NCBI RefSeq assembly: GCF_964355755.1
Contig: NC_092674.1
Location: 22,072,001 to 22,136,000 of the forward strand
From: Antedon mediterranea
Taxonomy: Eukaryota > Animalia > Echinodermata
Length of the DNA: 64,000 bases
Direction of reading: 5' to 3'
Position 1 is the first letter of the stretch; every line of letters begins with the position of its first letter. A program made the translations under genes and the position numbers. The notes beneath the pieces are model-generated. The model did no database searches. It was not told the DNA's origin and was given only the letters and a program-made list of their open reading frames with translations. Below, piece after piece: positions 1-55,849 of the stretch.

Positions 1-248
1 TCTAAAAAAGGTTAGTGGGTATAACAATTGTAGATATTGTATAGTTGAGTACTGTTATACTGTACTAATCATCGTTTATTAAACTTCTGGTATATTTTGT
101 TTATGCTATTCGTGCTTTGTGTAATGACATATTAATACGTTTTTGATATAGTTCAACAAACTTGTCATACAAAATATTAAAAATACAAATACTTGGAAAT
201 AGGCACAATTAAAATAAACATTATTTAGAAAAATATGCTTGTTTCTAC

Positions 249-3200
249 CTTAGCAGTTGGTATATAGATGAAGTTCCTCTTTAAGCCTTGGATTTCCTGT
301 TGGACTTGTAACCATTTTATTGGCAAAGTACGGATCATTTTCTTGGACAAATCAAGTATTTTTTCGATGATGTTAAAACCGTTGCTCTTGGCAAATGGTA
401 GACTGTTTTCAATTGTAAAAATAATTGAACACACCATTGCCCTGTATGGTTTGCCTTTTAGAGCTTCTTGGATTGTTTTCTTTATTTCTGCAAGCTGTAA
501 TGAAGTGAACCAGGGTGTCATCATTATTATCTAAATGTACTGTCATAATATAAACACGTGGCGGTAAAAAGATGTTTTGACAAGATTTTGAAAATATCAA
601 AACAAAAATGAAATCAATTCTTCAGTTTGACAATTGTTAACAATAAAAACATACTATCTAAAAATACTTTCTCTATTATTTTACCTTGCGTTTCTTTTCT
701 GCTTCACTACCTTTAAGGCCATTTAAATGTGTACCTATCAATAATACATGAGGACAAAGGAGACCTTCTATTTTCTTTGCGTCAGATCTACTGTTTGTGT
801 ATATTGAACAAATCCAATAAAGGATGAAATCTAGATTTGTCATTCGATGTTTGTACATTTTACCCTAAATACAAAATTAACATCGTTAGATAAGTTTGAG
901 ACTTGTATTTCCAAGAGAGTTGTAGGTATATCCATTTTAGTTGATTATTAATACATTACAATAAAGTGAAATTGATCACAGTCTATCACTTTAGGTTAAG
1001 TCAGTCATTGTGGGTTATCATTGAGAAAAGCATTCCTATTCTACATTCCACAACTGAACGTCTTTAGGGCTGTTTTTCCCAGTACCCTTTGTTGCATTTC
1101 CTAATAACAGCCGCATTTCCGGCAAATATTTCAAAACTTGTTCATTGGTCGACTCTACTAAAAGATTTAAGAGTAACCAAACTCGCCGGATTGTTTTGGA
1201 TAAGAAATTTGCAAAATGCAACAATGGGTACTTCCAAAAAAAGTTGTTGCCTACCTAGGGTAGAGGCTTCCCTGATTTAAACAAAAAAAACCTGTATTTA
1301 TCTATACTGTCAGATTGTGGTAAACATTCTTCGTATGAGAATGGCACAACTCATATTAGCGAAACACAACATCACTCAATAGCAAATTTCAGAGTTATTA
1401 ACTAAAAGTATGAATAGAGTGACAAAACATCCAGACAATTAAAGTAGTGGGATCTCCTATGGTAATAGAGTGCCAAGACCAATTAGAGAAGTGGAAGTTT
1501 AAGAGAAATATGGATTTCTAAATCAGTCATTGTATGCTTAACATGTTGTTGTGAATAACCAAAGTGCTGCCTCAAATAATAGGCGTTATGTTTTTATCAA
1601 TTATCAATTGTGACCAATTACAAATAATACAGTAAATAACTAAACAAGCACAAAATATGCTACGCCTTACAGTTGTTGGGTCCAAGACCATAGCTGGTGC
1701 CTCCAGATCATGACACAGGTTGAATACTACACAAATAACAGCAAATGAAACCATGAAGATCTACCGGTATGATATTATTATTATTATTAATTGAATTTTA
1801 CAAATGATGTGTATTGTTGTGTATAAAAAAATGTACTCGATTTGTTTAATGGTGCGCGGCAATTGCGAACTGCACACTGTCTAGCACATTCTATGTGAAT
1901 ACAAGAGAAAATACTTTACCCGCTGTATCACATGATAAATTGGTTGTCCTCCGAAGTCCCAAATATTCATCACAAACTTGTTATTAGACTCCTGGTTGTC
2001 ACTCCCTTCTTTCTGAAACTCAATCTCTAATAATTTATGGATGTTAGGAGGAATCTCTGACTGCATTTTTTCTTTCCCTTCTTCATATGCCAGTTCTAGT
2101 TTATAATTTAATAAAATTATACATTTTAATTCTTTTCAAATTCTGCAAATATGAATCAAAATTGCGCATTTGCTTTACATGTACTATGTTCTTTTTTTCT
2201 ATGGGTTCAAAAGGAAACTGCCTCCGCTCGAGTGCAGTTCAGTCGGATGTTGCACTGTTAACTCTACGCACACATAACCTTGATATTGTGTTTAAAGAAA
2301 AAACAAGGACAACACGTAAGGAATGAGACAATTGTGTTATGAGTTAGAACTCAATATCTCTACTACACTTACATTTTAGCTAGATTTCTTTTTCTATATC
2401 ATTGAAAGAGTATATACTTCTCTTTGTTTGCATATTTGTAGTTTGTATGCATAGTAGCTAGATAAAGGCGATTCCAAATATCAAGAATCTAATTGCCTAA
2501 ATTGTTTCAAATATAGTATTAATTTTCGAACGAATGTAATTTTATGGGATGGAATTACACTAGACTTACCTCCACATTCTTCATCTGTTTTTGTGGATAG
2601 GTCTGGATTTTGTGTTAACTGTGTTTCAACATGTGATTCTACAGTAGCATTTGTTAAAAGGGTTTCAGGTTGTTCTTCTCTTAAATCGTTTTCTGCGGAT
2701 ATTGTTGTATTTTGTTTTTCTTTCACCCGTTTTACCACTTCTCTTGCAATGACATTCTCGTATAGGCCTATGTCAGAAGCTTCAGCTTTAAAAAGTTGTG
2801 TTTGTTTCTTTATTATAAGTCTTGGTATTGTTGTTATACTTATTATTTTCATTATCAATACATACTCCCGAAAATACTATTATGTTCACATTTTTGCTGG
2901 TAATGTGAAGCGTGTGTGTCAAGTTTCATTAAATCACATTTATTGTTTTTAAATGTACAATTAAATTCAGAATTTCAGAAAATCGACGTACTGTAGTTAC
3001 GGTCGGCAACATCAGTTCATAAAATAAAAGTTATGTGCACAACTATTATAATATACCTGCTAGTCAACATTTGTGAACATTTTCCGAAAAACTGTGAACA
3101 ATTAAATAGAAAAGTGGATAGCCTAGTTATAGTATTACAGGTAGTATAGTTTGAGAATTAAAATTATTGTTATAAGATGTCGCTCTGTTCGCGCGTTTTT

Positions 3201-6200
3201 GCGCACACGTCTCTTGCAGACAGATCATTTTGTGCACGTAATTTAAGACTAAAGCATGGTTCTTAGGACACAACGACGTAATGTATCAACGCAATGTATC
3301 GATGCAAAGTGCCACTGTGTAATTATAAGTTGGAACCGAAAAAGAGATTGCAATATTTGAAAGCTTGTTACGTATCGTTGTACGGTATACTTACCAGTCT
3401 CTTGTGATTTTTCTTCCAAAATGATATCATCAACACTTTCTTGAGTGCACACCCTTGTTGTTGCTATGGCATCGGTAATGTCATGCTTTGGATTAAAACT
3501 GTAAAAGAAAATGTTTACTGCATTACAGTATATATAACTTAAAAACAAACAAGTAAAAATATGCAATTATTAAACCTCAATAATCACAGAAATAACGGAA
3601 ATAAATTATAAATGTTGTCAAAACTAAGTATTATCATGCGTTTAGAGTACACATGCAGGCAATCATTATAACCAAACTTAAGTTCCACATCATTTTTCGG
3701 TAACTAAAATTTAAAATTACAGTTATATTAAACTAAACTTTTACTGTATATATCACGTGATTTGTTAATACTACGTTATGTATGACAAGTGAATATGTTG
3801 AATTGTAATTGAATAATGGTTTGTGGAAGTGTTATGTGGAAATTCATCTAAAAATACAACACAGTATACATTATGAAGCTGGAGATGCCAAAACTTTTTA
3901 AAAATAATAATCTTGTTTACAAAGTTTGAACTACAAAAAGGATAACATGAATGTTATTTTAATAAATTGTCAGCGTTTGCATAATTGAGAAAGTTTAGTG
4001 TTTTTACTAGTGAAAACATATTTGATTGAAAAAAAAATATGGTAAAAACACATTGTTGATTGGGTAATATATTTCAAATATAATCTCGACTAACACTTTT
4101 AATTTATTTGACTGTTTAAAAGCTATGTTTACCTTTTCCTTAATAAGGAATTGATTGTAGAAGTTTTTCCAACTCCCTCAAGGCCTACAAAAATAGTTCT
4201 GCCTTGACTAACTTCAGTTTCCCCTTCTAGCAGTGCTTCATTGAATGCCTTTACTGCTTCTGGTCCTCGAGCTTGTATCTCCCATGGAGCTAATAGTGAA
4301 AATAAAAGGAAAAATGCTGGGTAGATTCATGAAAAAAAAATATTTTGCTTCGTTTACACTATCTACATAAATTATTCAACAATGTTTGACAAGCAACAGT
4401 AATCACTCGAAATTTACTATAGCAAGGCGTTTGACTTGATTGACCATGACTTAGCTATTTATTTATTTATTATTATTTATATTACTTATTATTCCCTGTA
4501 TCTGCGATTGTTTAATTTAGCACCAGTTATAACGTGTAAGCGTGTGGGTCGATATGTGCCACAAGAAACGGCGTTTTGATTGATTCAAGAGACAAGCTGG
4601 CCGCTTTAATTTACAGCAGAATTCCATGTGACTCACCTACAGGAAAGTATAGATCCTTTGTTAGAGTGAACTGAGGAGATGGTACTTGACAGCCGGTTAG
4701 TTGGCTTACTTCTCTATTCACACGTGTTAGCATGTCTAGAATATGATTAGTTTGATGACGTTCTTTTAAAACTCTTGTCAGGGTTCTGATAAAAACCGAA
4801 CCACTTTTGGTGTTGCTCATTTCTTTGGTTTTAGGTGCCGTAGAGTATCCAAACAGGAAATCGACATCATTGGGAATGTTGTCAAACGAATCATCTTTCT
4901 CCTTAGTTCGGCTAGCTTGTATAAAGAATACTTTTGGTTTGGAATGAAGACTTTCACATTTATCTGCTCGGAGATTACTGGCAAGTTGTAACATATTACA
5001 CGTTTTTCCATCACTACCAAAAACTTCTCCAAGTCTACCGTCAGACAATATACAACAGACAAAACAATCGTATTGTGAATGATCTCGTCTTCGCATTTCG
5101 TCCATCACATCCGTCATTTCCTGCGCAGTTTGATCGCGTTTCACTTCGACAATGAATCCCAAATATGTAAAAACACGTTCCAGCTCAACTGTTGAGAAAC
5201 ATACAGTACCAGCATTATCACAATATTACTTTATTAAATTATGAAAGTCTTTTATTTTGACATTGAATATTTTTGATGTTTGAATTGTGTTTAATTGCTT
5301 TCATTCTTCTAAACACGTTACTTGTAATGTCTTTGATATTCAGATATAATTTAAATCACTGACTAATGAAACTTATACCTTCATCATCAACTGCAGCACC
5401 AGTTCTGTCTGACAAGTTTTCTGCAAAGCTAATGTTGTTAATTATTAGGCATATTCCTCGTTGGTTGCTAGTCATTTTGTATTTAGGCCTGCCTCTACCT
5501 GGTATAACAAAATAATTTAAAAATATAGTAATACAAATGCCATTTATTAAATGAACTAATTATAAAGTACTATAATGTAACGTGCGTAACATTTAAAATG
5601 ACATCTAGTCTATATTTTACGTTTGGATGTCCATATTTATATTGTCATGAGCACATTATTTTTAAATTTGACAAAGAATTACAATTACCATTATTTCCAC
5701 AATCTATTTTGCTAATATCAATTTGTAAAAATAGGCATTATCGGTGGTGACGAGGGTAACATTAATTATGTATTGTGTACCCTACCGCTGAAGTAGTGCC
5801 TAGAATTTACTGTTACCCATAATTCAAAAACCAGATTGGCCACTAAGACCAATTGTGGACAACAATAATTCAGTATTTTATTACGTCTCCGAGGCAAAGT
5901 TGGTGTGATTTAACGGATAGCATGTAACTAATTCAAAAGAACTGGCAGACAATTTTAAACAGGTTAGAGTGATCGATAATGATTGATGACCCAATTTGAC
6001 GTTGTTTCCTTATTTACAAACATTCCCACAGCATAAGGTAAATAACATCGACCCATCTAATAGCATCACGTTCACTACAGAGATAATGTCGGGGAACAAA
6101 ATATCATTATCATGAAAACATGATTTAATAACAAACAGCATTCCGACCAATCCAATAATCACACACCACAGAGATAATATCGTGGAACAAAATATCAATC

Positions 6201-6586
6201 ATTCTTAGACATGATGATCACAATAAACTTAATACATTATTTACCACTAATCAATTTAAAAAATGGTCTGGTTCATCCGAAAGTTTAAATTAAAACAGAA
6301 GACGTTGGAGAAAAGGGACGTGCTCTTAAGATAAGAATAGGAGACCATAAAAAGGACTTCACCACACATAATCAAATGGTGAGAACAAGGGTTAATAGTT
6401 ATATCGTTCCAGGTGTTTCACAAATCGGCTATCAGGGATTATGCAATAAGAAATGACCATGTGCCAAATTAAAATTAATTAATACACAACATAAGAATAG
6501 AAAGATGTGTATAATAATAAAAACGAGATAATGTTTGATAATTCAAATGAACAACAAACTACTTTACCTTGCTTCTGGGTCGCCAT
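249..6586 (-). CDS. Pseudo-caspase (caspase-8-like fold, catalytic His/Cys lost) fused to ROC GTPase and COR start; 3' end beyond the window
   Basis: Hand-assembled exons, all GT/AG and phase-compatible: 6586-6568 (MATQKQ, tentative start), 5498-5379, 5188-4637, 4289-4133, 3498-3395, 2785-2570, 2095-1920, 1760-1671, 864-685, 494-249; 620 open codons. Caspase motifs GICLIINN, CFVCCILSDG, KPKVFFIQASR; ROC motifs GLEGVGKTS, WDFGGQ, IGTHLN; COR-like LPIKWLQVQQEI. Confidence 0.85.
4133..4289 (-). CDS. First ROC exon (P-loop) of the fusion gene; not in the ORF track
   Basis: Reads APWEIQARGPEAVKAFNEALLEGETEVSQGRTIFVGLEGVGKTSTINSLLRK, resembling the pre-ROC helix plus GxxxxGKT of invertebrate Roco proteins; phase 1 in, phase 2 out, matching both neighbours. 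Confidence 0.9.
4350..4455 (+). mobile_element. Short LINE reverse-transcriptase remnant in the caspase-ROC intron
   Basis: About 4418-4453 reads YSKAFDLIDHDL, matching the D(Y/F)SKAFD motif of CR1/L2/Rex-type RTs. Confidence 0.5.
4637..5188 (-). CDS. Inactive caspase p20/p10 exon of the fusion gene
   Basis: Overlaps ORF 4611..5162; SDG and QASRT replace SHG and QACRG; strong donor GTAG|gtgagt at 4637/4636. Confidence 0.92.
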
Positions 6587-7440
6587 ATCCACTGACAAAT
6601 CCTGTGAGACTTGCACAAGATGGTCTATTTATGTTTTTTCTCGCTTTCGCTGTCAAATAAAAGATTACAAAATATGAGTCAATTCAATTCAACATCAATA
6701 ATAGTATTTACAATTACAAACCCATTAAAATGAGTATCATTTGGTCGAGGAACGACATAGAGATACAAAGAAGTATGTTACTGCCACACCTTATCATAGA
6801 TACATACAAAAAAAACAAAGTAAAAAACATTAAAAATCATTATACATAACCATTAAAACAATTAATGACAATTGTACAACACAAGATCAAATTATAAATA
6901 GTAAACTTTAATTTAATTAATGTTTTTAAATTTTATATTTTTTTAAATTTAAATATCCAATAATACACAATTTATAATATAAATATATTTATTACAATAC
7001 AATTACAATTACAATTACAATTACAATTTACAATTTATTATTGTTACTCACATTGGCATTTTTATGGATAATCAATTTGGTTTTGAATGTTGAACGTGTT
7101 TTTGCAGATTGTTTATATTATTGTGACATTGAGTCATCTACTTAATGGAATGTTTCCTAGAAGTTAGGAAACGACGCTCTTAAATTGCTGCCGGTTCCTT
7201 AAAGAATATGTCCATCAATAGTATCTACATTTTTTTTCTGTCTGTTAGGCATACCTAATGGTGATAACATTGACTCTAATGCACGTTATTATAATACTAT
7301 AAAAATGCTTTAGATACGGTAGGCTGTATATATATTTTTACGTGATTTTCATTGTATTTTCATTTGTAACAAATTGGTTAATTAATTTGAAATAATTTCA
7401 TTTATAACGAGTTGTTATATCGATTATGCTTCTCAAGAGT

Positions 7441-22150: not shown

Positions 22151-22844
22151 TTCGTCTTAGTATGTTCAATATATCAGTTTTGTTGTTAACACTATAGATA
22201 TACTAGAATAGAGTGGTGCAATTTTAATTGTTTTCCTGAGTGGCTGTGACAGGTCATGTCATTTTAAACACCATTAGTAAAATTGTTTTTTAAAGTGTAT
22301 TTTTCTGGCAATAACAAAGCAATACAAAAACACAGTTGAAAGGCAAAAAACATAAAACATAAACATTAGGTGCTAAACCTCTACGGCAGTAGCGGTCAAC
22401 CCAAAATTCAAATCTATCTAAATTATTATCTATCATATCTATTATATACGATCTGCAAACATTTTGGACATATTAAATTAGTATTGTATTGAAATAATTA
22501 TGACTTTTTGAAAAAAAAAATATAGAAACATATATTTAAATTACGAATTTCAACGCGAAATGTATTCCAACATGTGGAACGTACGTTTTAAATGATTACG
22601 GTATTCCTGCAACGACGAACATTAAAAAGGGTACCAGTCAGTTACAAGTCATAAGTTATGAATTAAGAAGGCCTAATTAAATTAGACTTTGAATAGGTTA
22701 TTTTGTAGTTAAGTTAATCACTTCCGTAGGAAAAAAAAGAAAAAAAATAATGTTTTCACTTATAAAATAACATAATGATGGTTAAATTAAACCAAAAATC
22801 TATTAGCTGGCACCCAATTTGACGATTTTTTGCCTTAAATTCCG

Positions 22845-24550
22845 TTTTTTCAGGTAAATAATTTGTTTTGATGCAATTTTCGGTTGAAGTCAATAACTAT
22901 TTTGTGACATTAAAATGACATACTCACCAAAAAAAAAATTAAAAATTATTTTTTCAGGGGACAATACATCTTTAAAATAATTAATAATTGTGGTGATGAC
23001 GCCTAGAACATAAAGGAGGTAAATTGAAGTCGACATTTATCTAATGTATGTATCTTAATATAAAGTAATCTTACTAAAAATTGGTTTACCTTTTTGTAGA
23101 GAAACAATTAATTCGGCATTTAGTTGAAAGAATGAATTGCACTTCTTGATAACACCCTCACGGCATAATGAACAACACCATGGAGGAAATAAAATATTGA
23201 TAGTTTCCTTCTTCGAATACATCATACACAGATTGCTTTGAATCTGCACAAAATAAAAAGCAATGACTCTGCGTATAGACTGACATGCGCACTGGCCTTG
23301 AACGAGTAACATATGTGCACTGTTTCTAAACAGTTTTAGTGGCTGGACCACATTATCGAAAATCTGTCTTTCATTTTTCTCTCCTGCTTTTTTATTGTAC
23401 ATCTTCTCGAAGTTGGCAATGGCAACAAGATTTGAATTAATATATAATGATTGACTAATAATAATGAATTTAAATTGTCTTTTAATTTGTAGACAATGTT
23501 AGCACTTCGTTCTTAATATTTTTCAAACACCATTCTTTCTGGTAAATAATTTTTTTGATGCAATTTTCGGTTCAAGTCAATTTTTATTTTTGACATTAAA
23601 ATGACATACTCACCAAAAAAACAAATTAAAAAATATTTTTTCAGGGGAACAATATATCTTTAAAAAAATTAGTAATTGTGGTGATGACGCCTAGAATATA
23701 AAGGATGTAAATTGAAGTCGACATTTATCTAATGTATGTATCTTAATATAAAGTAATCTTACTAAAAATTGGTTTACCTTTTTGTAGAGAAACAATTAAT
23801 TCGGCATTTAGTTGAAAGAATGAATTGCACTTCTTGATAACACCCCTCACGGCATAATGAACAACACCATGGAGGAAATAAAATATTGATAGTTTCCTTC
23901 TTCGAATACATCATACATAGATTGCTTTGAATCTGCACAAAATAAAAAGCAATGACTCTGCGTACAGACTGACATGCGCACTGGCCTTGAACGACTAACA
24001 TATGTGCACTGTTTCTAAAAAGTTTTAGTGGCCGGACAACATTATCGAGAATCTGTCTTTTATTTTTCTCTCCGGCTTTTTTATTGTAAATTTGTTCGAA
24101 GTTGGCAATGGCAACGAGATTTGAAATAATATAATGATTGCCTATATAGTAATGAATTTAAATTGTTCTTTAATTTGTAGACAATGTTAGCACTTCGTTC
24201 TTAATATTTTTCAAACACCGATTTTTTCAGGTAAATAATTTTTTTGATGCAATTTTCGGTTCAAGTCAATTTTTATTTTTGACATTAAAATGACATACTC
24301 ACCAAAAAAACTAATTAAAATATATTTTTTCAGGGGGAAAATACATCTTTAAAAGAATTAATAATTGTGGTGATGACGCCTAGAACATAAAGGATGTAAA
24401 TTGAAGTCGACATTTATCTAATGTATGTATCTTAATATAAAGTAATCTTACTAAAAATTGGTTTACCTTTTTGTAGAGAAACAATTAATTCGGCATTTAG
24501 TTGAAAGAATGAATTGCACTTCTTGATAACACCCCTCACGGAATAATGAA
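22845..24550. repeat. Tandem repeat of about 690 bp, 2.5 copies, covering the putative first exon/promoter of the 16.9-22.2 kb caspase
   Basis: Near-identical units start at about 22845, 23535 and 24225; each holds the donor-like TTTACC at about 23085, 23773 and 24462. Confidence 0.9.
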
Positions 24551-25614
24551 CTGAAATTATTATGTATTCGAGAACCATCTGTGGGCACGACCTAGATGGT
24601 ACGCGAGCGAAGCGAGCGTACCATCTAGTCTTTTATAATTATTGAAAATATTATATTTCAAAGATTTACAGTTATTGAACGGATATATATACTTCTAATA
24701 TTTCATAAACCGTGTGTCGTTTTAACAAATTTGAGATTTATGCATGCTTTTTTAAGTCATAATTGGTGTGTTGTAAGAGGTTTTGAAGATTTGTGGTGTG
24801 CTCTTCCTTTAAACCTACTACCTACCTTGTATTGACAAACACAATTGACGATGATGATGTGATTTATTATCGTTTATTCTTATTACAAACATACGAGAAC
24901 ACACGCGTACAAACTAATACTTTTATACATATTATTTCCTCATTTTTCATTTTCATTTCATTTGCATTTTTATTCCAAAACAAGACAAAATTCTACATAA
25001 TAAAACAAAATAGGAAAATAGAATGGTATAAAAACTAAACACGAAAGCTTTAAACATTTTAATTCAAAATAAGCATTACGAGTTGTATACAAAGTGACAA
25101 GAAACAATAAAATCCTAATAACAAAAGAACGTGTTGAAAGAAAGTTGTGTAAGTAACATCATGGAACTATATATATATATATATATATATTACAGTTCCA
25201 TGGTAACATAAAACAAACATTAACTCTAAAGCGTGATTTCATGGTATTAACCTGTCTTTACCTATTATCACAAAACAATTCATTACATGGAATACATTTG
25301 ATACAGCACAAAAGGATTAAACTAATATGTCATATATAACACTTGAAATAAGAGAAAATACACAAATTAGCTTAAAAATTATCTGAATAAAGCATTGAAA
25401 TCAAAGTAATAACAACAATACAGTCTCACAGCTAAGTAAAGTGTACTTTTTACCAAAGTTATCGAATTACCGAAATCAATTTAATGTAATGATATTGTTA
25501 ATATTAGTTGTAAATACTTTAATTTAGGACTCATGCATAACGAGATAGTGAGTAAATTAATTGAGTGTTTTATCAATGATGAACGGACATTTCAATCGGC
25601 ACATAAGTTATAGT

Positions 25615-28600
25615 TTATTGGTCTACGCTAGAAAAGTATAGATCCTTTGTTAGGGTGTACTGGGGAGCTGGTACCCTGGTGCGGGTAACTTTATTTACCT
25701 GATCATTCACAATTGTTAGAATATCTAGAATGTGATCTTTATGATGTCGTTCTTCTAAAACCTTTGTTAGATTTATAATGAAATGCGTACCTTTATCCGT
25801 GTTTCTAACTGACTTTGTTAGAGGTGGCGTCGAGTATCCAAATAGGAAATCCGGATCACTAGGAATTGGTTCAACCCCATCTTCACCTGAATTTTGTGGT
25901 CGGCATGCTTGTATGAAGAATAATTTTGGTTTGGAAATAAGATTTGTGCATTTATCCTTTCGAAAATTGTTGGTCAGTTCCACAATCTTACAACTCTTTC
26001 CGTCACTACCATAAACAATTCCAAGACGACCATGAGACAATATAAAGCAAACAAAACAATCATATGTTTTATGTTGCTCACGTTTACTCATTTCGCACAT
26101 CACATCTTTCATCTCTTGAGCAGTTTGATTGGATTTCACCTCAACAACAAAGCCTATGTTTTTAAAAACACGATTTAGATGAGCTGTTGAGAAACGTACC
26201 AGTATATTTTATTTACATTATAATTATTTGGTAAATTTATCGATTCAAATTAATCAATTAAATGTCTAAACCACCCGGTGATATACTGAAATTGAATTAA
26301 TTAATTTGAAACGACAAGATGAGGAAATCTGTGAGAAAGAGAAAAAGTCGCCCCAACCGAGACTCTCTTCTGCTTGATATGCAGCTGTCCTAACCATTAG
26401 ACCACTGGAGATGTCATGGTATTGTTCAAACTCAATTGGATAGCGACTCTTTAATATTCTCGGCGTGGTACGGCGGAACAGCACTAGTCCCTCAATTGTA
26501 AGCACGCGCACCAGAGATCAAATTGATACGCCCTCATCTTTCAGTATTTTATTCACGAAGCGGGATCTCCAAAGAGATACTTTTATATATATAAACACAT
26601 CAGGCATAGAACATTAATTCTAAACCACCCTGTGATATAATGAAATTTAAATTTGAAACATTAAAGATGAGGAAATCTGTGAGAATGAAAAAAAGTCGCT
26701 CAACCAAGGCTCGAACGCGGAACCTTCTCCTTGATATGCAGAATACTGAAAAATTACAATGATGTGGGTATCAGTGGCTGGATCTCAATGGAGATACAAA
26801 AAAAGCAAACATCAAAACGATAAAGAAAAACAGCCAGAAAGTTATCAGCGCTTTCGGGCAACACTAGCCCTTCATCAGTGCAAATGAAGGTACTTGGACA
26901 AAGATAGATAGATATATAAGGCAAGCACTGCCTGAGTAGACAGGAATAAAAGAAATAAAACCAAAGAGGCACAAGGCTTGTGAATAGAGGGTGGATATAG
27001 TATTGGGTTAGAAAACAAAGAAGATTAGATAGCTTGCTTATAGCTTAACAAAAATAGCTTAATAAACAGCTTAAATGGTCGTTAATATTGAAACATAAAT
27101 TTAGGTAGTCAATGGAGTAATTTTAAGTCCAAAAGGTTTTGTGGTTTTAAGAAGTAATTTCCACTGGTTTCCTTTGTCTTTACGAGTTTTGTCGCTCCAT
27201 TTGACATCGTGGTCTATTGTAATAACTCTGAAATTAGCAATCGAGTGACCAGCTGAATTAAAATGTTCGGCTACAGGTTGATCAAGCTTTAATGTTTTGA
27301 TAGCTGATCTGTGTTGTGTCATTCTCATACAGGGCGTGTTTTTTGTTTCCCCGACATACTCTTTGCAAGATTTGCCGCACAGGCTTTGGCTGTCATGAGA
27401 GTTAATTTCACTCATTTGGATATTACTAATATATCACGAAGGTTGGGAGGTCTATGAAATGCAATGATAGGTGGTTCCGGAAAAACAGTCCTGAGACGTT
27501 TTGTGGACTGTAGAATGGGCATATGTTTTCAATAATAGCCCGTAATGGAGGCAACATAAGGTGATAGGTTGTGACCAATGACACTCTGGTCGAATTTGGC
27601 TGACGTGGTTTGTACATCAGTGTCTGATATTGAGGAATGTCTTTTGCTTTCTTTATAACAGTTTTAATGTATATATATATATAAAGAGTCGTTATCCAAT
27701 CGAGTTCGAACAATACCATGAAAGCCCCAGTGGTCTAATGGTTAGGACATCTGCATATCAAGCAGGCGGTCCGAGTTCGAGTCTCGGTTGGGGTGACTTT
27801 TTCTCATTCTCACAGATTTCCTCATCTTTATCGTTTCAAATTAAATTATGTAATTAATTAAATTTCAGTATATCACCGGGCGGTTTAGAATTAATGTTCT
27901 TTGCCTCTTGTGTTTATATATATATAAAGTATCTCTTCGGAGATCCCGCCTCGTGAATAAAAATACTGAAAGATGAGGGCCTATCAATATGATCTCTGTT
28001 TCGCGTGCGTACAACTGTGGACTAGTGCTGTTCCGCCGTGCCACGCCGAGAATGTTAAAGAGTCGTTATCCAATCGAGTTCGAACAATACCATGAAAGCC
28101 GCAGTGGTCTAATGGTTAGGACATCTGCATATCAAGCAGCCCTAACCATTAGACCACTAGGGCTTTCATGGTATAGTTTTTTAACTCTATCGGATAACGA
28201 CCCTTTAACAATTCTCGGCGTGGTACGGTTGGAACACAACTAGTCCTCAGTTGTACGCACGCGCACCAGAGATCAAATTTATACGCCCTCATCTATAATT
28301 CAGTATATTTATTCACTAAGCGGGATCTCGAGAGATACTTTTATATATATATAAACACAACAGGCATAGAAATAAATATATATAATTTCCGATTTATATC
28401 TTTATAGCAGTTTTTATATCTTTATAGTAGTTTCAATGTATTTATATATTTCCAACGATTTATATCTTTTGACAGAAATACGCTGAAATTCCCGAGGAAA
28501 AACATAAACCGAGTAAACTATTACTATTATTACTATACCTTCATCTATTTTAGAACCAGGTCGTTCTGACAACTCGCTTTCCTGATTAAAAACATAGTTG

Positions 28601-31600
28601 TTTATAATTAGGCATATTCCAGGTTTGCTTGACATTGTGTATTTAGGTCTCTCCAAGCCTGGATATGTAAAACAAGCAAAAAATAAAACAATATAAAACA
28701 ACTAAACATTTAAATAATGTCGACTATGTTTACAGTCCAGATGTTAAAAGTATATAATTTGGAAGTTCAGGCTGTTTTCCAGTCGACGTTGATTTGCGTT
28801 GAATTGACCGGATTCAACGATTTTGAGGTAAAACGAAAATGAGGTAAAAATAAACGTTAAAAATCGTTAAACCTGCTTTTCAGTTGACGTTAAGTCGCCT
28901 TGATTTGCTTTGACATTTAAATCGTAAAAAGGTTTAAAACAAATAACGATAGCCATGATCGAGCCGGACCAATGTACAAAAAATGCAATGTTTTTTTGGG
29001 GCAACTAATAATAATAATAATAATAACAACTTTATTTAAAAACGGATGCAACACTTGAATCACCATAATTGTGTTTTTCGCAAGGCCGTTACTTACTACA
29101 AACTATTTATACTATTACACAAGTTATCATTTACAGTACAAAAACAACAACAACAACAACAAAAAAAAGATTTCATGAATAAATATAGAGTTTCAAGTAT
29201 ATTTTATCTTTGGTCATTATCATTGTTTTAAATATATGTATATTAGGAGCTGTAATTGCATTTGAGTTTATAGCAACTAACTCTATGAGTAATTGTTTTG
29301 CTTTAGTTGCCCCTGACCATTGTGCTCTGTTTCTGTTCTGTTCTGTGTCTGTGTATTGGTCGAATAAATAAATGAAATGAATGAAAAACATCGTCGCGTT
29401 GTATACATTCAAGATTGTCTGCTAGTACGTACTTTTTCAAAAGCTATAATGACATAATTTGTGAACCATTTGGTTGGTCAGTTCTAACGATCTAACGTTG
29501 AAGTTGAACTCGGGTAAACTTCAACGATTGCATTGATTTTAAAGTCTATTTTCTAGTAGATTTTAGCTGAATTGACCGGATTCAACGATTTTACAGGAAA
29601 ATGGAGTTATAAACACTGAAAATCGTTACAATTTGCAATCGATCGTTAAAACTAATCAATTAATTCACTAATTACGTCAGCATAGTTTGTGAAAAGAAAC
29701 CGCATTTATTTTAGCGTTACGAACATAACTGATTATTAATAACGTGTTTTAAGTAAACAAACACTCTTCATAGGCCTATACGTTGTTTTAACAACTTATG
29801 ATGAGTTGATCAAATCAAAATGTTCTGAGGATGTCGGGTAAAAGTGTTTAGTATCTATCTGGAGAATGATTGCTATCATCAATTCCAAAACAATAGTAGT
29901 GCTGTATATATTAAGATACATTTTAAAAGTAATTTAACACTTATGTATATATGATAGTGAATGTTTTCTTACATTCTTTTTCCAATATCCCATGAGTTTA
30001 TAACCTCTTTATCCCAACACGAACAATTGTTCTATCCCGTTTTACTACTTTACCTTGTTGCGTCTTCGGATTTTTCTTAAAGGGAAGCGCATTTATACGC
30101 GCTTGTTCCTCTCTTGTCTCACTTTCTTTGTCTAAAGAGAAGAAAATAACCAACAAGTTAGAAACTTTGGGAGTAGGATTAAGAATAAATGTAAACATTT
30201 TAATCTGAATATTAATGGTTAATACACTGCGCCTTACTAAAAATGAATTAGTGTGGTGATATCATTATAAATCAACATGTTGACTATAACTACTCGTGTT
30301 TTTTTTTATTCCCGCAAAGTAGACTTTATTTGATTTCGGAATGATTACTCTATATTAATTGCATTGCAAGACATTATTTAGATAGATATATACACAACTC
30401 AACCCAGAATCATCCGACTTTAATCTTGCATTTGACACTATGACTAAGTTAGTAATAAGGAATTTCTTAAAAATTGTAGGAAGGAAAAGAAAACCAACAC
30501 TTAAATTATAGGTTGATTAGTTCAAAGTGTATGGGTTACAGGAGGCCTATTTATTTTCGATTGACTACTATGTTGTAGGTAGGTAAAGATGCTAAAAACC
30601 GCTATGGCACTCTTGAATACTGTCCAGTCTGGCTTTGCACCGAACAGGTGATGTTTGACTCTTCTTCATTGTTTAGGTTGGAACCTTTCTTGTGCAGAGT
30701 ATAGATAGTTTGTAACAATTAAAACCGCTCTAATCTTCACGAAATAGCGCTATAGAAATATCTCATTATTATAATTATTATTAAGAAATATTTATTTGAA
30801 AAGAGGAATAGAAGGAAGAAGGATTATTTGGGCAAACAGTCTTCAGAAAGTAAAGGAATATATCAAATATATGAAAGAACTGAGAGTGGTGCGATTCCAA
30901 GAAATGAAATGTTTTGAAATAGTAGTAGAATAAAAGCATCCAATTGGAACAATTTTGATATCTATTTTCGTTACTGCTAAAGACAAATATATATTTGTGT
31001 GTATGTGTTATATTATGTAAAGGATCAATAAAGCCAAAAAGAAAATAACGACGCTTTACCTTTTTTTGCCGGAAGCAAGTCAACCAATTTGTCTAAAAAT
31101 ATATAACAATATAATTTAGTATTATATCTTCCTTGTTTATAACATTATCTTCTATCTGCATCTTTTCAACGTTGTGACCTGCCTGGTGAAGTTTCTGTTC
31201 ACTCAATTAAGACAATCACAACGTGACTATGGTATTTGAGTTATTCGCTTTTGTTTAAAAAAAAATAATAATAATGTACACAATAATTTGTATAGTTGAA
31301 AGTAGACTTTAAAAACACTGCTCTTTATGTCTAATTGTTTTTTTCTAATTGATATATTTCTACATCAAAATCATTACCAACAAAGTAGTACCGTAAATGT
31401 AACTTAGAATACTGTACCTTTGTCATCACGCTTAATATCTGCATCTGAAGAAAAAAAAACTTATTAATGAATAATTTATTTACAAGTAGAAATTCTCGTG
31501 AGTTCAACTCACATACATAACATTTTACATGCCTGATATTGTTTAGACTATTCAGTATAATCGATTCAATAGTTGAAGTCAATGGAACTAAAGGCGGGCT

Positions 31601-33316
31601 ACTACCATCAACCATAACGTAAGCAACACGTTTCTCACGGAAGTTTTAGTGGATATATTACTTTGCCTCTGACAATTACAACAAAGTACATCGACAAATG
31701 TATACCATTCTTGAAAATTTGACTACAGTACCTTTCACTGTAACAACAACTTCGTCTGAAAGAAAGAAATCGTACATTGTATCTGTGATATATCATGTTT
31801 ATTTGCATATATTCGTTATGATTCTTTCTAAAATCCTGATAGCGCATGTTGTTTTAGACCATGTAATTACGTGGCATAAACATTAGAAGTCCGTTTTTAA
31901 GTCAGGAAATCCTACATCATGTTTAATGATTAAAACTTTATTCACTTTATTATTTATTTATTTTTTAATCTAACACATGGTTTATTATTACGGGTGGGGT
32001 TAGTTCATGTTTATGAGTGGGTGTTTTTTTAAATTAGACTTGGTGAACATAGAGAAACAATTTTAATACCTTAAAATAAGCTTTATGGTAGGTGAAAAAA
32101 TGTTAACGTTGTCCCCACCTCTGCCCAGCACAACTACATCATTACAAATACTCCCACCCCATTGTAATATTGGAAGTTTGACATTCGTAAACAAACTATT
32201 TTAATTGTCACATAATCTGTAGCTTGATTGTCTGTATCCTGATTCAGTTAAATTAGTTTATAAACGTACCATAGTATATAAGACATGTATACAGTAATAA
32301 TAAATAAATATAATAATGAAGTACAGTACATACCTCTTCTGAATACCAAATTGTTCAGCCCATCTAAAAATAAGAATTAATTAGTTCATTGCTATGCTTT
32401 CTTGACACATTAAAATTACAAGCGTATAAATGTAACATAAACGGAGATGCGTTAAGGAGAAAAACAGGTATAATGTTGATTCAGGGAGATATGGTAACTC
32501 GTTCCAAAAGGCTTCAATTAATTTTATTTCATATATACATTTATTCGATTACGTATAACGACCACAATAGTTGGAATTGTTATGTTAATTTACAGTATTT
32601 AAAGTTAAAAGCTGAAATAAAAAGTCACATCTATTTTGAAGCTTTATAAGTTTGGATGCGAAGGGTGTTGTAATGGTTTTTAATGAATAAACATGTTAGA
32701 GTTTGTATAGTCGACCCCATTAAATACTTAAACTGATCATTAGTAAATCTACGTGTTGTATGTAGCGCCTATTCTCACCTTTAATTATTCCTTTTGCTTT
32801 TCCACTGAGACGATCAGCAAACCTGTTCAAATCTTTTCGCGTAACCAAGAAGTCATTTACTTGTAAGTATAATGCCAAATCCCACAAATCTTTAATATCA
32901 CTGTTGTGCGTCTGATCGTAAAATGCACGTGCCTCATTGAAATCTTTACTTGGATCAGCTTGCTCTATTCCATTAAAAAATAAACTACGATACGGCTTTA
33001 ATCCTACGCCTTTGTGTACAAATTTTGGTTTGGGCACAGTGACTTCAGTCAGGAGATCTTGAAGAGAACCAAGTTTCGTCAGCTCACCAATCTCAGAAAA
33101 CAATTTCAAGGCATTGAATGAAGCAATAACTTCGTTCTGTTCTCTGTGCTTTGCCAAGTCATCCAGCAATTCGATTGCAGTCACTGAGTTTTTTCCAAGA
33201 ACCGTACTGCTAATGTAATCCGATAGGAGAAATTTTAATTTTTTTAAATTATCTCCCTGGAAACTCCTACCAAACTCTGCTGAAAATTCTTTATATTCAA
33301 AGTCAATATTAGCCAT
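25615..33316 (-). CDS. Caspase-8/10-like initiator caspase with two DED-like domains, about 472 aa (SHG, QACRP)
   Basis: Exons 33316-32779 (DED-like LKKLKFLLSDYI and YRSLFFNGIEQ), 32363-32334, 31755-31732, 31444-31418, 31092-31060, 30131-30054, 28658-28539, 26183-25615; all phase-1 junctions, open frame. Confidence 0.85.
26255..26745 (-). repeat. tRNA-derived unit of about 365 bp, tandem, (TA)n-bounded
   Basis: Same unit as 27680-28380, 34500-35015 and 36150-36412. Confidence 0.8.
26755..27665 (-). mobile_element. Penelope-like retroelement remnant (GIY-YIG endonuclease plus 3' repeat)
   Basis: ORF 27101..27415 CKEYVGETKN...RMTQHRSAI...PVAEHFN; upstream RVSLVTTYH; hammerhead-like motif at 26845-26882. 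Confidence 0.85.
27680..28380. repeat. tRNA-derived units, direct then inverted
   Basis: Cloverleaf-like sequence at 27724-27795, second head at about 28098, orientation switch at about 28140. Confidence 0.8.
27724..27795 (+). pseudogene. tRNA-like cloverleaf (Asp/Glu-related, ATC at the anticodon position), repeat-borne
   Basis: Acceptor GCCCCAG/TTGGGGT, anticodon arm TCTGC-ATATCAA-GCAGG, T arm CCGAG-TTCGAGT-CTCGG, then TTTTT; other copies at 34620-34691(-) and 42657-42728(+). Confidence 0.6.
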
Positions 33317-40704: not shown

Positions 40705-42040
40705 TTAATCAATCTCTAACCCAGGAAAGTATAACCTCTTTGTTAAAGTGTATTGGGGAGATGGAACCTGACCGCCACCGCCGCTGGTTTTCTTGCAGCT
40801 GGTAATCTTGAAGCTGGCAATCCTGCGGCTGGTAATCTTGCTTACTTCATAATTCACATGTGTTAGAATATCTAGAATGTGATCGGTATGATGACGTTCT
40901 TCCAAAGCTTTTGTAAGATTTCTAATGAAATACGAACCATGTTTCCTGTTCCTCTTTGCCTTTGCAAGAGGTGTTGTCGCGTATCCAAGAAGAAAATCGG
41001 GGACGCTGGGATTGTTTTCAGGAGTAAGCTTGTCTTCCTCTGTTTGTTTATAATTTCGACACGCTTGTATAAAAAATACTTTTGGTTTGCGGCTAAGACT
41101 TTCACATTTATCTGGTCGAAGACCATCGGCGAGTTCTATTATATTACAAGTCTCTCCATCACTACCCGCAACTGTGCCAAGACCACCATGAGACAGTATA
41201 CAGCAAACAAAACAATCATATTCTGTATGATCACGTTTTTGCATGTCAGACATCACATCCTTCATCTCCTGAGAAGTTTGGTTGCGTTTCACCTCAACCA
41301 GGAATCCCAAATATTCAAAAACACACTTGAGATTCACTAATTTGATAATGGAAATGATGGCAATTAAATCTTACATATTTATTATAATAGCAGTTTCTGC
41401 TAAGAAATTTGACATGCCTGTCACATGGTTAACACATATCAATATTACATATATTGCATAGGCCTATTATCCTTCTACAAATAGAATTCAGTTAAAATAA
41501 ATACAAAGAAAAACAATATTTTGTATATACCTTCATCGACTTTAGAACCTTTTCTTTTCTTCAATCTTCTTCCTTGTGTAAACGTAATGTTGTTAACAAT
41601 TAGGCATATTCCACGTGGAACGCGGGTCATGCTGTATTGGGGCGGTCTTTCGCATTCTGATAAAAGTAGAAATGAATTATTATTGTTAAATAAAATAATT
41701 ATTACATTATTATTATTATTATTATTATAAATTAGCTTTAAGTATATATTAGGGTTTTAAATTGAAAGTGGAATAATTATATTTAAATCAGTAATTATGA
41801 TTATAAATCATTCGAATAAAAGTAGAGTGACATTCCAATATCATTTAAATTGACCACAGTAAAATAAGTATCAATCTTACCGACAGACGAAAATGTGTTT
41901 TTAATGCGTTGACAATTCAACTATAGAATAGTTGCATTGTCATTCAAACGTTTAATACAAAGGTAATCGGGTAAGAACATTGTAACTTGTATGTTGGAAA
42001 TACCTACCGACATCTTCTGCTTTTGGTATAACGTCAGCAT
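40705..42040 (-). CDS. Short-prodomain caspase-8-like paralog, about 276 aa (SHG, QACRN)
   Basis: Exons 42040-42008 (MLTLYQKQKMS) and 41920-41881 (both tentative), 41656-41531 (PRGICLIVNN) and 41336-40705; canonical splice sites, open frame. Confidence 0.85.
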
Positions 42041-46964: not shown

Positions 46965-47750
46965 AGTCGCGTGCTACAATGCATAGTGATACCGGACCGA
47001 CAGACAAACAGACCGACAGACAGACCGACAGACAGACGGACCGACCGACATAGTGAACTATACTGACCGAAATTACTGAACATGTTTAAAAATGTTGAAA
47101 TGTTTAAAAACATTTATATTTTTTTTAATTTACACGTGCGTAGCCTGTCACTTTTGACGTGCTCGTATAACGTAATTTCGAGTTGAAAAGTAAGTCAAGA
47201 AAACAGAAATCAGGCAAAAAGAGTGCGCAAAAACATTTAACGCGCAGTGCGCGCGCAAAAATCTGCGCACTCATGGCAATTTTGTAAACGCTTAAAATTG
47301 CCTGAAACGTACTCTTATTTCATCGAAAAAATTGAAAATTTTAAGCGCGCGTACGCATGCGTTACATGCGCTACGCACGTAATTGTATTGCCATATGATG
47401 ATTTATGCCCTGAAATTTATGAGTACCAAATTTTATTTAATTGTGATTCATGGTTGTTAAGATATGATTACAAACGTGATTTCGTTAAATCGTGCGTAGA
47501 CCGCGTAATTTTTTATTGCGCACCGTGAAAACATAACCACATCGATTCCTGGCCATAAGGAATATTCTGTGAAAAATTTACTTAGCTAGATTAAACTGAT
47601 ATCAAGATATGGTCATAAAGCGATAAAACGCATAGTGATACCGGACCGACAGACAGACAGACAGACCGACAGACAGACCGACAGACAGACAGACAGACAG
47701 ACCGACCGACCGACATAGTGAACTATAGAGTCGCTTCCACGCGACTAAAA
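46965..47750 (-). mobile_element. DINE-1/HINE-like element with (GACA/GACC)n
   Basis: Ends GAGTCGCTTCCACGCGACTAAAA; body shared with 36415-36975. Confidence 0.75.
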
Positions 47751-48055
47751 ATTAGGGTTATGGATAGAATTTTGCTTAAGCAGATCCTCAAGAACTCCTA
47801 TGACGTCTTTTCTCGTTTCATTTTCATTTTCTTGTACATCATTTGCATGACTGTCAAGTTCGATTTCCTCACTACATTCGGCTGAATGGGTTTCTTCTTC
47901 GTCACTGACACTAGAAATGTGAGAGAATTGTGGTAACTGCTGTTTTGTTTCTAATGTTTGATGCTGTTTTTCTGCTGCATCGCTTGTGTTGTTTTTACAG
48001 TTCTTTGCTAAGTGGCCAGTTTTATTACAGATGTAGCATGACATTTTCTCGAGTA
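47751..48055 (-). mobile_element. Gag/ORF1-type zinc-knuckle fragment
   Basis: CYICNKTGHLAKNC (CX2CX4HX4C) in ORF 47745..48131. Confidence 0.6.
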
Positions 48056-48059
48056 ATTT

Positions 48060-50605
48060 TGGACATGTTTCTGTATAGCGAGGTGTTGGCGGTCTTAAAT
48101 TGAACACCCCTCTAAGAAATCTCTTAATCATTGGTTGATTACCAATACTAGTGAAATGTCACATCTAATGTTATAACTGATGTCACAGCCAGAGCGCTCT
48201 TTGCTGTGTTGATGGCACTATATCCGAGTCCATTTTGGTACTGTCTCCAAGGAAAGTTAGGACTTCGCCAGGAGTTGTTTGCATCGGATTAGTTTTCCTT
48301 TCAACGCAAAACTGCATCCATTGTTTGAGGTAGGTTTGATACTGTTTCCTCGTTGATCCCCTCTATGATTCCAAAATGATGGCTTGAGCTGAGCTTGGTA
48401 TTCAATTTGTCTTGAGTGATTCCAGGATAATCTGCAACATAATAATTGTAATTTATGAGATAGTGGGTGTTCCGCATTTGACCCCACCAAACCCAGTGTA
48501 TTTTTTCCCTTCTGGCAACACCACCGGGTCATCAATTAGCATTTTTTAATAATCTTGGGAACCATGGCTGAGTTGGCCATTTTGGTACTATTAATGTACC
48601 CTCTGCCCGATCCTGGGAAATTGTTGGTAAACACCTATCTATTACACTAAATTATGGCAATGCATACAACTTTAGATCACCTAAGTTTACTGTAAAAGCA
48701 TCTACAGCCACTGCTCCTGGGTCAGTGTGCCAAGATATGTAACATGGTAGTTGTTTATTTAGTCTGGTTGCGAATAGGTCAATATTTTCTTCGCCTATAA
48801 TACTCTTTTTTGGGTTATTAATTTCCATAAAATTATGTCTGTATGAAGCGTCCATTCGGATTGCTTCTTAAAAACCTAGATTATGTTTTACTCGTGGTAG
48901 GTATGCAGCTGATACCCATATTTGTCTAGCGGCACACCATTCCCACAATGATAATGCTAATAATTTACATTTTGTGGATTTTATTCAACCCATGTTATTT
49001 ATGTAGGTCACGGCTGTGACATTATCAAGTCGAAGGCGATAATGGACATTGTTAACATGTTTACAGAAGGATTGTAAAGCAAAAAAGGCTGCTTGCAGTT
49101 CCAAATAATTTATATTTGGTCCTATAACTTTAATATCTTCATTTGCTTTCCATCTGCCACCTATCTAGGCCGAGCAGTTTGAAGCTCCCCGTCCCAAACC
49201 ACTGGCATCAGTTTCTAGAATTATTACTGGGATTGGTTTGTGAATGTGCCTATTTGACTGCCTTATATTAACTAGCCACCATCCAGCTTCCCTTTTTATA
49301 TTCGCAGTTACTCGTATTTTTGCATCGTAGTTACCCTTATTAATTGTTAGGGCTTTTTCCCCTTGCCAGAAAAACATTAAGTATTTTCGGTGTAATTTGT
49401 GTATCAAAACAGAGTAGTATGCATCTTTCAGGTCTAATGATGCCATGAAACAGTCCTTTCTGGCAGCCTTATCAAACGTATCCATTTTAAAATGGTGATA
49501 TTGGACATAATTCAAGTATCACTCGAATACCCCCACCCTTTTTCGATCTCGTAAATATATTTGAGATGAACTCTCCAGTTTCTAATGTAGTTTGTTCTAT
49601 TACCCCCTTTTTTGTGAGTAATTTAATTTCATTATTAACGGCCTCAATCTCATAAGGTTTGAGTTTATTTATGGGTATGGAACCCATGTTGGTACAGGGG
49701 GGCGGGGGACACTATCAAACTTTTATAGCCTTGTATAATAGTCAGCATATTAGGGTCTGACGTATATTTTTTCCACTGTTCTAGCTTTGATGATAGTTGT
49801 CCCCCTTGAAATAATATTTCTTTCCCTTCTGGGTAGTTATAGAGTATACATACCTCATCCCCAGCATTTACTTTCCTGGAGTTTTGGCTTTGAAGGTCTG
49901 CCTTGTCGATAATGGTTTCCTCTTGGTTAGTTCATGTAGCTCTTCCCTAAAAAAGGTGTCCCTTGTTTGGGTGATTTCTATATGCGCCCCTACCTCGATA
50001 AGGTACTCGAAAAGACTGTGTTCCTTTTGAGTGGCTATATCTTGTGACAGTAGCGCCAACACCTCTTCCTGAACCGGTGTTGTTTGACCCTGCTGAGTCG
50101 TTAGCAGTGCAGTTATACCACTGATAAGAGGTATCTGAATCCTCTGTAATCAGAGGTCTTTTGACCTCGAGCTAGCAGTTACATTTTCCCATATAATCGG
50201 GTTCTCCTTAGGAACCAATAAGTTCGGGATATTATTTCCCGGAGTGGGGTATTTCTCCATGGTTTTTGTCATGTCTCTTCACCCAATTTTTCTGAAATCT
50301 TTACCTACGGCTGTTTGCCAGCTTGTCGTAAACGTTTGGCCCAGTGGGCATGTTGACCTTGAATCTATTTTCAAACCCAATAGATTCGCTTTCTATAGAT
50401 TTATCATATCTATGATTGTTGCCCCCACCTCTGGGCATACGCTCCCTGTGGGAGACTTGGCCTGAATCCCTGTGGGAGGCTCAGCCGCAGAACCGGTTAA
50501 TTCTACCACATCATTTGGGTCTTGAATTACGTTCCCAGTAGGAGACTCAATTCTAGGCCTATAAGCATATGGGTTCTTCCCGTAATACTCGGAGTCATCA
50601 TACAT
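48060..50605 (-). mobile_element. Degenerate DIRS-type tyrosine-recombinase retrotransposon
   Basis: RT (HFKMD...ASLDLKDAYYSV), RNase H (LETDASGLG), methyltransferase-like (IDLFATRLNKQLPCYISW...DAF) and recombinase N-part (IKRFLRGVFNLRPPTPRY); many stops and deletions. Confidence 0.88.
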
Positions 50606-55704: not shown

Positions 55705-55849
55705 CCTGATAGATAATAACAGCAGGATAAAAAACAGATGACTAAATGTTAAAAATCTAAAGCAGGAAAACTGTACTGTTTTCAAATTAACAATCTGTAT
55801 ATATATAGTAAATCAGGTACCGTGTTAACAATAAAATAATTTAAATATA

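Follow-up and report, generated by a model that had tools for sequence, protein, structure and literature searches.

A putatively inactivated caspase domain spliced in frame to a Roco-type GTPase domain in the crinoid Antedon mediterranea

What would a caspase that has lost its catalytic residues be doing at the head of a Roco GTPase, and is there such a protein at all? The question is raised by a gene on the minus strand, running from 6586 to 249, of a 64,000-nt stretch of the crinoid Antedon mediterranea (NCBI RefSeq assembly GCF_964355755.1, contig NC_092674.1, positions 22,072,001 to 22,136,000). This whole stretch, animal DNA with a GC content of ~32%, is referred to here as the window. 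A preliminary description made from the letters alone had claimed a catalytically dead caspase fused in frame to a ROC-COR GTPase, an architecture that it did not recognise from characterised proteins. We find that the in-frame fusion of caspase and ROC is real and spliced, that its caspase domain has in all likelihood lost catalysis while keeping its fold, and that this domain came from a neighbouring array of active caspases.

Ten exons, when joined, give 620 stop-free codons, and the nine introns between them are all GT-AG with phases agreeing at every joint (Table 1). The fusion joint is just as had been proposed, with a phase-1 donor (GTAG/gtgagt, at 4637) facing a phase-1 acceptor at 4289, and the reading frame that had been followed into further exons meets no stop. 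An in-frame TAA lies 15 codons 5' of the exon-1 Met. At the other end, the acceptor AG after exon 10 is found at positions 3-2, at the window edge, and the gene therefore runs on leftwards. Three of the five public sequencing runs containing the stretch were examined (X1, X2, and X3). That X1 is RNA is a program's guess, the run type not being on record, while X2 and X3 look genomic. Contigs of X1 skip 9/9 introns, whereas X2 and X3 cover the region and skip 0/9, and we read X1 as spliced transcript because exact GT-AG skips that are absent from the other two runs are what spliced transcripts give. The joint 4289/4637, for which reads across the junction had been named as the check, has a depth of 15 in X1, its shorter side being covered by 157 letters, and one 957-nt contig spans from 5088, inside the caspase exon, across ROC exons as far as 2570. 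Between 4637 and 5088 this contig differs from the window once, synonymously, and the dead residues are therefore also in the transcript. A 680-nt X1 contig over exon 10 has 264 further letters off the window, as expected if the transcript is spliced onward.

The fusion is also already in RefSeq, as an unnamed model. The record, XP_071950866.1 (A. mediterranea, uncharacterised, 567 aa; 100% match to the caspase exon), is identical to the ten-exon model for 558 residues and then ends via a 32-nt gap, which is contradicted by an X1 contig that reads 252-494 gap-free. Pfam matches on this protein are Peptidase_C14 (PF00656, E=1.2e-49) and Roc (E=6.2e-12), both above cut-off. A feature search of the ESM Atlas gave no usable match for the whole protein, and for the ROC part only leads below 0.9.

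Table 1. Positions in the window of the fusion gene and of the neighbouring caspase genes
Feature	Positions	Strand	Remarks
Coding exon 1	6568..6586	-	Start Met and 6 codons; contig joint 5495/6565; RefSeq protein begins at the same Met
Exon 2	5379..5498	-	Caspase domain begins; S1-pocket Arg38 retained
Exon 3	4637..5188	-	Pseudo-caspase body; His96 to Asp, Cys139 to Ser, Arg171 to Ser; presumed dimer-interface strand conserved; 3' donor absent from three paralogues
Fusion intron	4290..4636	-	347 nt, phase 1; likely former 3' untranslated region (UTR)
Exon 4	4133..4289	-	ROC entry helix (P-x-E-I motif) and P-loop G1 GLEGVGKTS at 4185-4159
Exon 5	3395..3498	-	G2/switch I region, ITDA
Exon 6	2570..2785	-	Variable acidic insert inside ROC; acceptor 2785 used by RNA contig
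Exon 7	1920..2095	-	G3 WDFGGQ at 1961-1944
Exon 8	1671..1760	-	ROC core strand
Exon 9	685..864	-	G4 region GTHLN at 735-721, without Asp
Exon 10	249..494	-	ROC end and ~25 first COR-A residues (paralogue alignment); phase-0 donor
Sister caspase XP_071949585.1	16897..20358	-	247 aa, without prodomain; dyad intact; closest relative of the dead domain
DED-bearing caspase XP_071950576/7.1	25615..33316	-	Divergent DED-like pair; dyad intact
Third caspase	exons 40705..41656	-	Insertion before last strand; no prodomain exon located; dyad intact

The claim that the caspase is dead is borne out by its residues. The catalytic His of the S-H-G motif has become Asp96, where codon 5042-5040 reads GAC against CAT in three paralogues (two base changes), and the catalytic Cys of QACxG has become Ser139 (codon 4913-4911). 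In the S1 pocket, whose trio we take to be Arg179, Gln283, and Arg341 in caspase-1 numbering, Arg38 and Gln137 are retained and an Arg is replaced by Ser171 (codon 4817-4815). The other rows of an 84-row alignment have the His in 83/83, the Cys in 82/83, and Arg at the third S1 position in 82/83. Six active Antedon caspases agree without exception in 74 columns; at six of these the fusion gene differs, four times conservatively, the remaining two being the catalytic His and Cys. Leave-one-out controls with active paralogues show 2-12 changes at such columns, and a hand calculation puts the chance of both dyad residues being among six random picks of 74 at p ~0.006. The number of invariant-column changes is thus ordinary and their placement is not.

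The domain is under constraint. On its branch the ratio of nonsynonymous to synonymous substitution rates (dN/dS), over 220 codons, is 0.40 (bootstrap 0.22-0.73; at least 1 in 1/500 replicates), similar to the 0.37-0.49 of the active sister caspase branch. With the 84-row alignment, AlphaFold gave block means of the predicted local distance difference test (pLDDT) mostly of 79-98 over residues 11-230, and of 60 at the inter-subunit linker. This model was used for the caspase part only, where the alignment had depth, with the ROC part excluded; a single-sequence run (mean pLDDT 35) was not used. VIA aligned 213 residues to a caspase (Z 33, root mean square deviation 1.8 A) and gave Z 26 to cFLIP-L, and Foldseek agrees. 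The C-terminal strand, presumably the caspase dimer interface, is conserved across the four window paralogues. Overall, the domain is best described as a predicted pseudo-caspase, catalytically dead rather than active, that has kept its fold. The loss of the S1 Arg in addition to the dyad fits a protein that would no longer bind substrate yet would keep a surface for a partner.

The dead domain derives from the adjacent caspases. The same strand carries, upstream, three further caspase-8-like genes in tandem, each of which retains its His and Cys. In a caspase tree without a cFLIP row, the dead domain is sister to the collected protein P0092 with a support of 88 in the Shimodaira-Hasegawa-like approximate likelihood ratio test (SH-aLRT), and a five-row Antedon group receives 97. 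The paralogues' stops come 2-6 codons past an LYF motif and the fusion gene has its splice donor at that place; if unspliced, its caspase-only frame stops 8 codons past the donor. The fusion intron contains four polyadenylation-like AATAAA/ATTAAA hexamers and has weak similarity to the 3' flanks of two paralogues (z 4.9 and 3.3; 1.0 for the third), and it is likely to be the old 3' UTR. Because the paralogues stop where the donor sits, and because the intron resembles their 3' flanks and carries such hexamers, the fusion most likely came about through a new donor just before the old stop, which would have captured the opening exon of a Roco gene lying downstream. A DNA search found no DED-like prodomain exon between exon 1 and the next caspase gene, and the sole DED-like exon of the window, 33316-32780, belongs to a different gene. 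The S1 Arg position is altered in XP_071949585.1 as well. Two further ideas were tried and rejected. For exon 1 as a relic of the paralogue linker exon, only the donor was supported (its score was attained in 20 and in 10 of 500 shuffles) and this is not relied on; a cFLIP orthologue can be set aside as the gene lacks tandem DEDs, has an in-frame stop upstream of its Met, and nests among active Antedon paralogues.

Downstream of the joint the protein resembles a Roco. The motifs G1 (GLEGVGKTS), G2 (ITDA), and G3 (WDFGGQ) are intact and match a crinoid family, and a profile of 17 family members has the solved Roc-COR structures MbRoco and CtRoco as its best matches (E ~1e-17); going by ROC motifs and family, it is a Roco. 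The COR in the window amounts to ~25 residues aligned to the COR-A start of paralogues, with no Pfam COR-A match on the RefSeq protein and no Pfam match on exon 10 alone. Thus, of the earlier ROC-COR assignment and the Pfam searches proposed for it, the ROC with G1-G3 and the caspase stand, whereas G4 is without its Asp and the greater part of the COR is extrapolated from paralogues. Full-length relatives carry on into COR-A and finish with death or DED-like domains, and a full COR and a death-fold tail are expected to follow here. The crinoid Roco models P0052, P0059, P0060, and P0082 stop near the exon boundary at which the window ends; such endings would mean either that COR exons are often mis-annotated or that ROC-only forms exist.

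The place that the caspase occupies is a variable one. In 34 of the collected ROC proteins the ROC part opens with one and the same P-x-E/I motif, 34 residues ahead of the P-loop, behind differing modules, which include DED-like pairs, ankyrin repeats, ankyrin repeats plus a death domain, a DED with Macro, a Ras-type GTPase with Macro, TAZ with KIX, and an N-WASP GTPase-binding region. These sister architectures are predicted gene models. Death-fold modules (DED-like pairs or a death domain) fill the slot in P0052, P0060, P0072, P0074, P0075, P0082, P0126, and P0140. In XP_071945975.1 (P0084, Antedon) the TAZ and KIX domains of CBP/p300 (PDB match, E=1.6e-40) stand ahead of ROC-COR, with a C-terminal DED, in XP_033111221.1 (P0065, Anneissia) an N-WASP basic/GTPase-binding region stands ahead of ROC (E=1.8e-08), and in XP_033101038.1 the slot holds a Ras-type GTPase and a Macro domain. 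The fusion gene likewise has a host-derived domain grafted onto the switch protein of a shuffling family, and in the ROC tree the TAZ-KIX Roco shares a five-row group with it (SH-aLRT 90).

How common is the joining of caspase and ROC? A phmmer search against 1.84 billion representatives (the best 150 of 5649 matches) and three word-seeded searches yielded 230 proteins, 176 with a caspase, 60 with a ROC, and nine with both. Apart from the fusion gene, then, 8 of 229 proteins join the two, and all are ROC-first, with a C-terminal caspase whose His and Cys are intact. They are the Lingula database proteins XP_013407220.1, XP_013401300.1, and XP_013412607.1; CAH1786849.1 (P0114) of Owenia fusiformis, which combines Bcl-2 (N-terminal), ROC, and COR with an intact caspase in a single chain; the two Exaiptasia models KXJ13106.1 and XP_020902336.1, which form one cluster; and P0139, a NACHT-ROC-CARD-caspase, and P0141. 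No second caspase-first, dead-caspase ROC protein was found among the 230, although weakly similar ones could escape searches limited to the best 150 of 5649 matches and to word seeds. Placing the fusion gene in one clade with the ROC-first proteins is rejected by the approximately unbiased (AU) test both for ROC (6 rows vs. 14, p-AU 4e-57) and for the caspase (8 rows vs. 12, p-AU 2e-05). The trees are quick ones with some long branches, P0141, P0160, and P0196 being excluded from that of ROC, and they suggest that the ROC-first caspases arose separately from the fusion gene. Some of the collected proteins are of interest in their own right. P0229 (Exaiptasia) is a HEPN-ATPase-ROC-COR-caspase, P0111 (Lingula) groups with the Owenia protein in the ROC tree, and P0138 (KAK7490356.1, from a snail) has an N-terminal caspase and an AIG1/GIMAP GTPase and is another caspase-first GTPase fusion.

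As the best explanation we tentatively favor a spliced crinoid Roco gene in which the dead caspase domain serves as a caspase-binding regulator under a ROC-COR switch. The domain would pair with active paralogue caspases as a binding module, and the adjoining prodomain-less sister XP_071949585.1, which has no recruitment domain of its own, is the most likely partner, perhaps by way of a heterodimer. ROC would bind nucleotide, and the nucleotide cycle of ROC-COR would then set whether partner caspases are joined or kept apart, the partner being either activated, as by CASPS18 or cFLIP-L, or dampened. In the cycle of other Rocos the GTP form is a monomer and the GDP form a dimer (PMC6337361). 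Since the slot often holds death folds, which are caspase-recruiting modules, a dead caspase could be a like-for-like substitute, and the ROC-COR proteins of Lingula, Owenia, and Exaiptasia, in which the coupled caspase is intact, show that this switch has repeatedly been wired to caspases.

Several points weigh against this explanation. As the inactivation is undated along its branch, the dN/dS signal may in part be older than the loss of catalysis. The RNA evidence consists of contigs from a single sample in one study. The fusion was found in one species only, with no caspase domain in any Roco match of Anneissia japonica, and XP_071950866.1 forms a protein cluster of one. The C-terminus of the protein lies beyond the window, and the early end of the RefSeq model leaves room for a downstream lesion in some haplotypes. 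G4 reads THLN, with Asn for Asp, which makes guanine specificity unsure; this Asp is absent from 30/41 G4 motifs counted among the collected ROC proteins, and G4-G5 are described as variable among Roco proteins (PMC6337361). Finally, the captured host domains of other sister Rocos (TAZ-KIX of CBP, the GTPase-binding region of N-WASP) favor a different account, that of an integrated decoy.

In that account, which like a cFLIP-like regulator was already suggested in the preliminary description and which we consider rather unlikely, the protein is a sensor in which the dead caspase would lure an anti-caspase protein made by a pathogen; its binding would then flip ROC-COR, and a death-fold tail would recruit DED caspases. 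CBP, N-WASP, and caspases are all pathogen targets, and in favor of a decoy the crinoid family has 34 ROC proteins sharing one start motif behind differing modules, models with plainly captured host domains (TAZ-KIX, the N-WASP region, Ras-type GTPase plus Macro), one of these, the TAZ-KIX Roco, in the fusion gene's own five-row group, and relatives that end in death or DED-like domains. However, known caspase inhibitors act for the most part on the active-site Cys and the S1 pocket, and it is precisely these features that have been lost. A dN/dS of 0.40 gives no diversifying signal, the fusions with TAZ-KIX, WASP, and Macro stand as gene models, there is no known pathogen ligand, and the output domain is outside the window. 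An extension of the same idea, that the crinoid expansion of ROC-COR-death-fold proteins parallels the plant NLRs with integrated decoys (NLR-IDs), pathogen-targeted domains being exon-shuffled into one slot to trip caspase-dependent death, is by analogy conceivable and equally doubtful.

It is also conceivable, with no better prospects, that the caspase is a young passenger. The new donor would have made a redundant caspase copy the 5' end of the downstream Roco, which would use the caspase promoter, with the domain acting as a spacer. Catalysis would then have been lost only to remove a harmful protease, and a domain without any binding role seems to us improbable to a similar degree. The finding of the fusion in one species only and the resemblance of the intron to a former 3' UTR, in which polyadenylation-like hexamers are still present, are in keeping with recent passage. 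Furthermore, a newly dimerising fusion would probably need its catalysis removed in order to avoid self-activation, and the branch dN/dS cannot split the time before the fusion from that after it. However, three separate active-site codons are altered where one change already inactivates, so that the further two were not needed, and the other invariant columns show only four conservative changes. The frame is open across ten exons, and six of the 11 coding differences picked as alleles, among the rows listed, are synonymous, which is a weak argument in the same direction. Very improbable is a pair of separate genes linked only through rare read-through splicing or an artefact of annotation, which could draw on the stop that the unspliced caspase frame meets soon after the donor, on X1 coverage of the intron at depth ~2, and on exons 1 and 4 both being phase 1, because of which caspase-skipping isoforms are possible, but which is contradicted by a fusion joint as deep as the ROC-exon joints on the same contig, by a ROC exon that has no in-frame start, by RefSeq joining both parts as well, and by the lack of any listed joint from another exon into 4289 within 1-7200 in X1-X3, an alternative first exon being what the preliminary description would have taken as refutation.

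Elsewhere in the window, an intronless open reading frame on the plus strand (52691-53182) has a weak Bcl-2 match (PF00452, E=2.5e-4, below cut-off) and a hydrophobic C-terminal tail. Retroelement fragments occur close by, and the frame, which does not resemble the Bcl-2 domain found in the Owenia fusion, may represent a Bcl-2 of viral type or a retrocopy. Near it on the minus strand is an intronless open frame of 266 codons (55012-55812) without a Pfam match. Retroelement remnants at 47745-49518 and 27101-27433 comprise a CCHC knuckle, a reverse-transcriptase fragment, and a weak GIY-YIG match, and tandem repeats of ~690 nt occupy 22842-24551.

Invertebrate Rocos are numerous and almost all are functionally uncharacterised, and the gene described here is a spliced case with a well-understood module. 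Because the biochemistry of that accessory module is well understood, ROC-COR output in these families becomes directly testable by caspase assays. At this locus one can also follow how a pseudo-caspase was born and how two domains were fused through one new splice donor, with an active sister adjoining as control. Together with the separately evolved ROC-COR proteins of a brachiopod, an annelid, and an anemone that carry active caspases, it suggests that Rocos and caspases have been wired together more than once in animals, in this case with the order inverted and the caspase disarmed. Should the capture of CBP and N-WASP domains prove real, the Rocos of crinoids would become a candidate family of animal integrated-decoy receptors.

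To what extent does this protein resemble systems that have been described? Searches of PMC open-licence and bioRxiv full text, outside of which most subscription journals lie, brought up no paper on a dead N-terminal caspase-ROC protein or on the crinoid Roco expansion; related architectures may be present among the supplementary tables of PMC8195603 and in PMC11463336, figure S1. The architecture is accordingly less strange than the preliminary description had it, as caspase and ROC in one chain are already known from Owenia, from bacteria, and from the eight collected proteins, yet the reversed order with a dead caspase is so far unique and was found only here among the 230. Owenia has a caspase with a ROC pro-domain, the only part mentioned in the passage (Horkan et al., 2024; PMC11463336). 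The Owenia, Lingula, and Exaiptasia proteins share with ours the presence of caspase and ROC(-COR) in one animal polypeptide, but they are ROC-first with an active-dyad C-terminal caspase, whereas here the caspase is N-terminal and apparently dead.

In bacteria, caspases are among the C-terminal effectors of Roc-COR proteins (Kaur et al., 2021; PMC8195603). The bacterial LRR-AP-GTPase(Roc)-COR counter-invaders, as described there, are alike in keeping a constant Roc-COR switch while swapping accessory domains, and occur as several paralogues per genome. They differ in having N-terminal leucine-rich repeats (LRRs) together with a C-terminal caspase effector, where the Antedon protein, from an animal, has no LRR and a dead caspase at its N-terminus. 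Inactive caspase domains in bacterial conflict systems have been interpreted as likely dominant-negative or binding modules (PMC7159879). Among animal pseudo-caspases, cFLIP consists of DEDs and an inactive caspase (PMC8195603), decoy caspases are reported from mosquitoes (PMC4840389, PMC3141678), and CASPS18 of Aedes is described as a decoy whose effect is to enhance CASPS19, its paralogue (PMC4840389). To judge from these passages, cFLIP-L and CASPS18 share with the dead domain a non-catalytic caspase fold born by duplication beside an active paralogue. However, the Antedon protein has no DED prodomain, is not a cFLIP orthologue, and is fused to a Roco GTPase, and its binding of paralogues is hypothetical.

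Rocos with death folds are known in other invertebrates. Those of Trichoplax carry CARD or death domains (PMC4104024) and the DAPK1-type Roco is without LRR (PMC6337361); the passages found on these proteins make no mention of a caspase domain. Such proteins share with ours a Roco-type ROC, no LRR, and relatives with terminal death domains, but differ from the crinoid expansion in its long ROC insert, degenerate G4, and captured host domains. Roco-TIR proteins have been noted in Aplysia (PMC9334734) and Rocos have been put forward as candidate immune receptors (PMC11378527). The last comparison is with plants, in which NLRs carry integrated decoy domains (Kroj et al., 2016; PMC5067614). The likeness is that a domain from a host protein, inactivated in the present case, has been attached to a nucleotide-switch protein whose family shuffles fast, and the difference lies in a switch that is ROC-COR rather than NB-ARC, without LRR and with no known pathogen effector.

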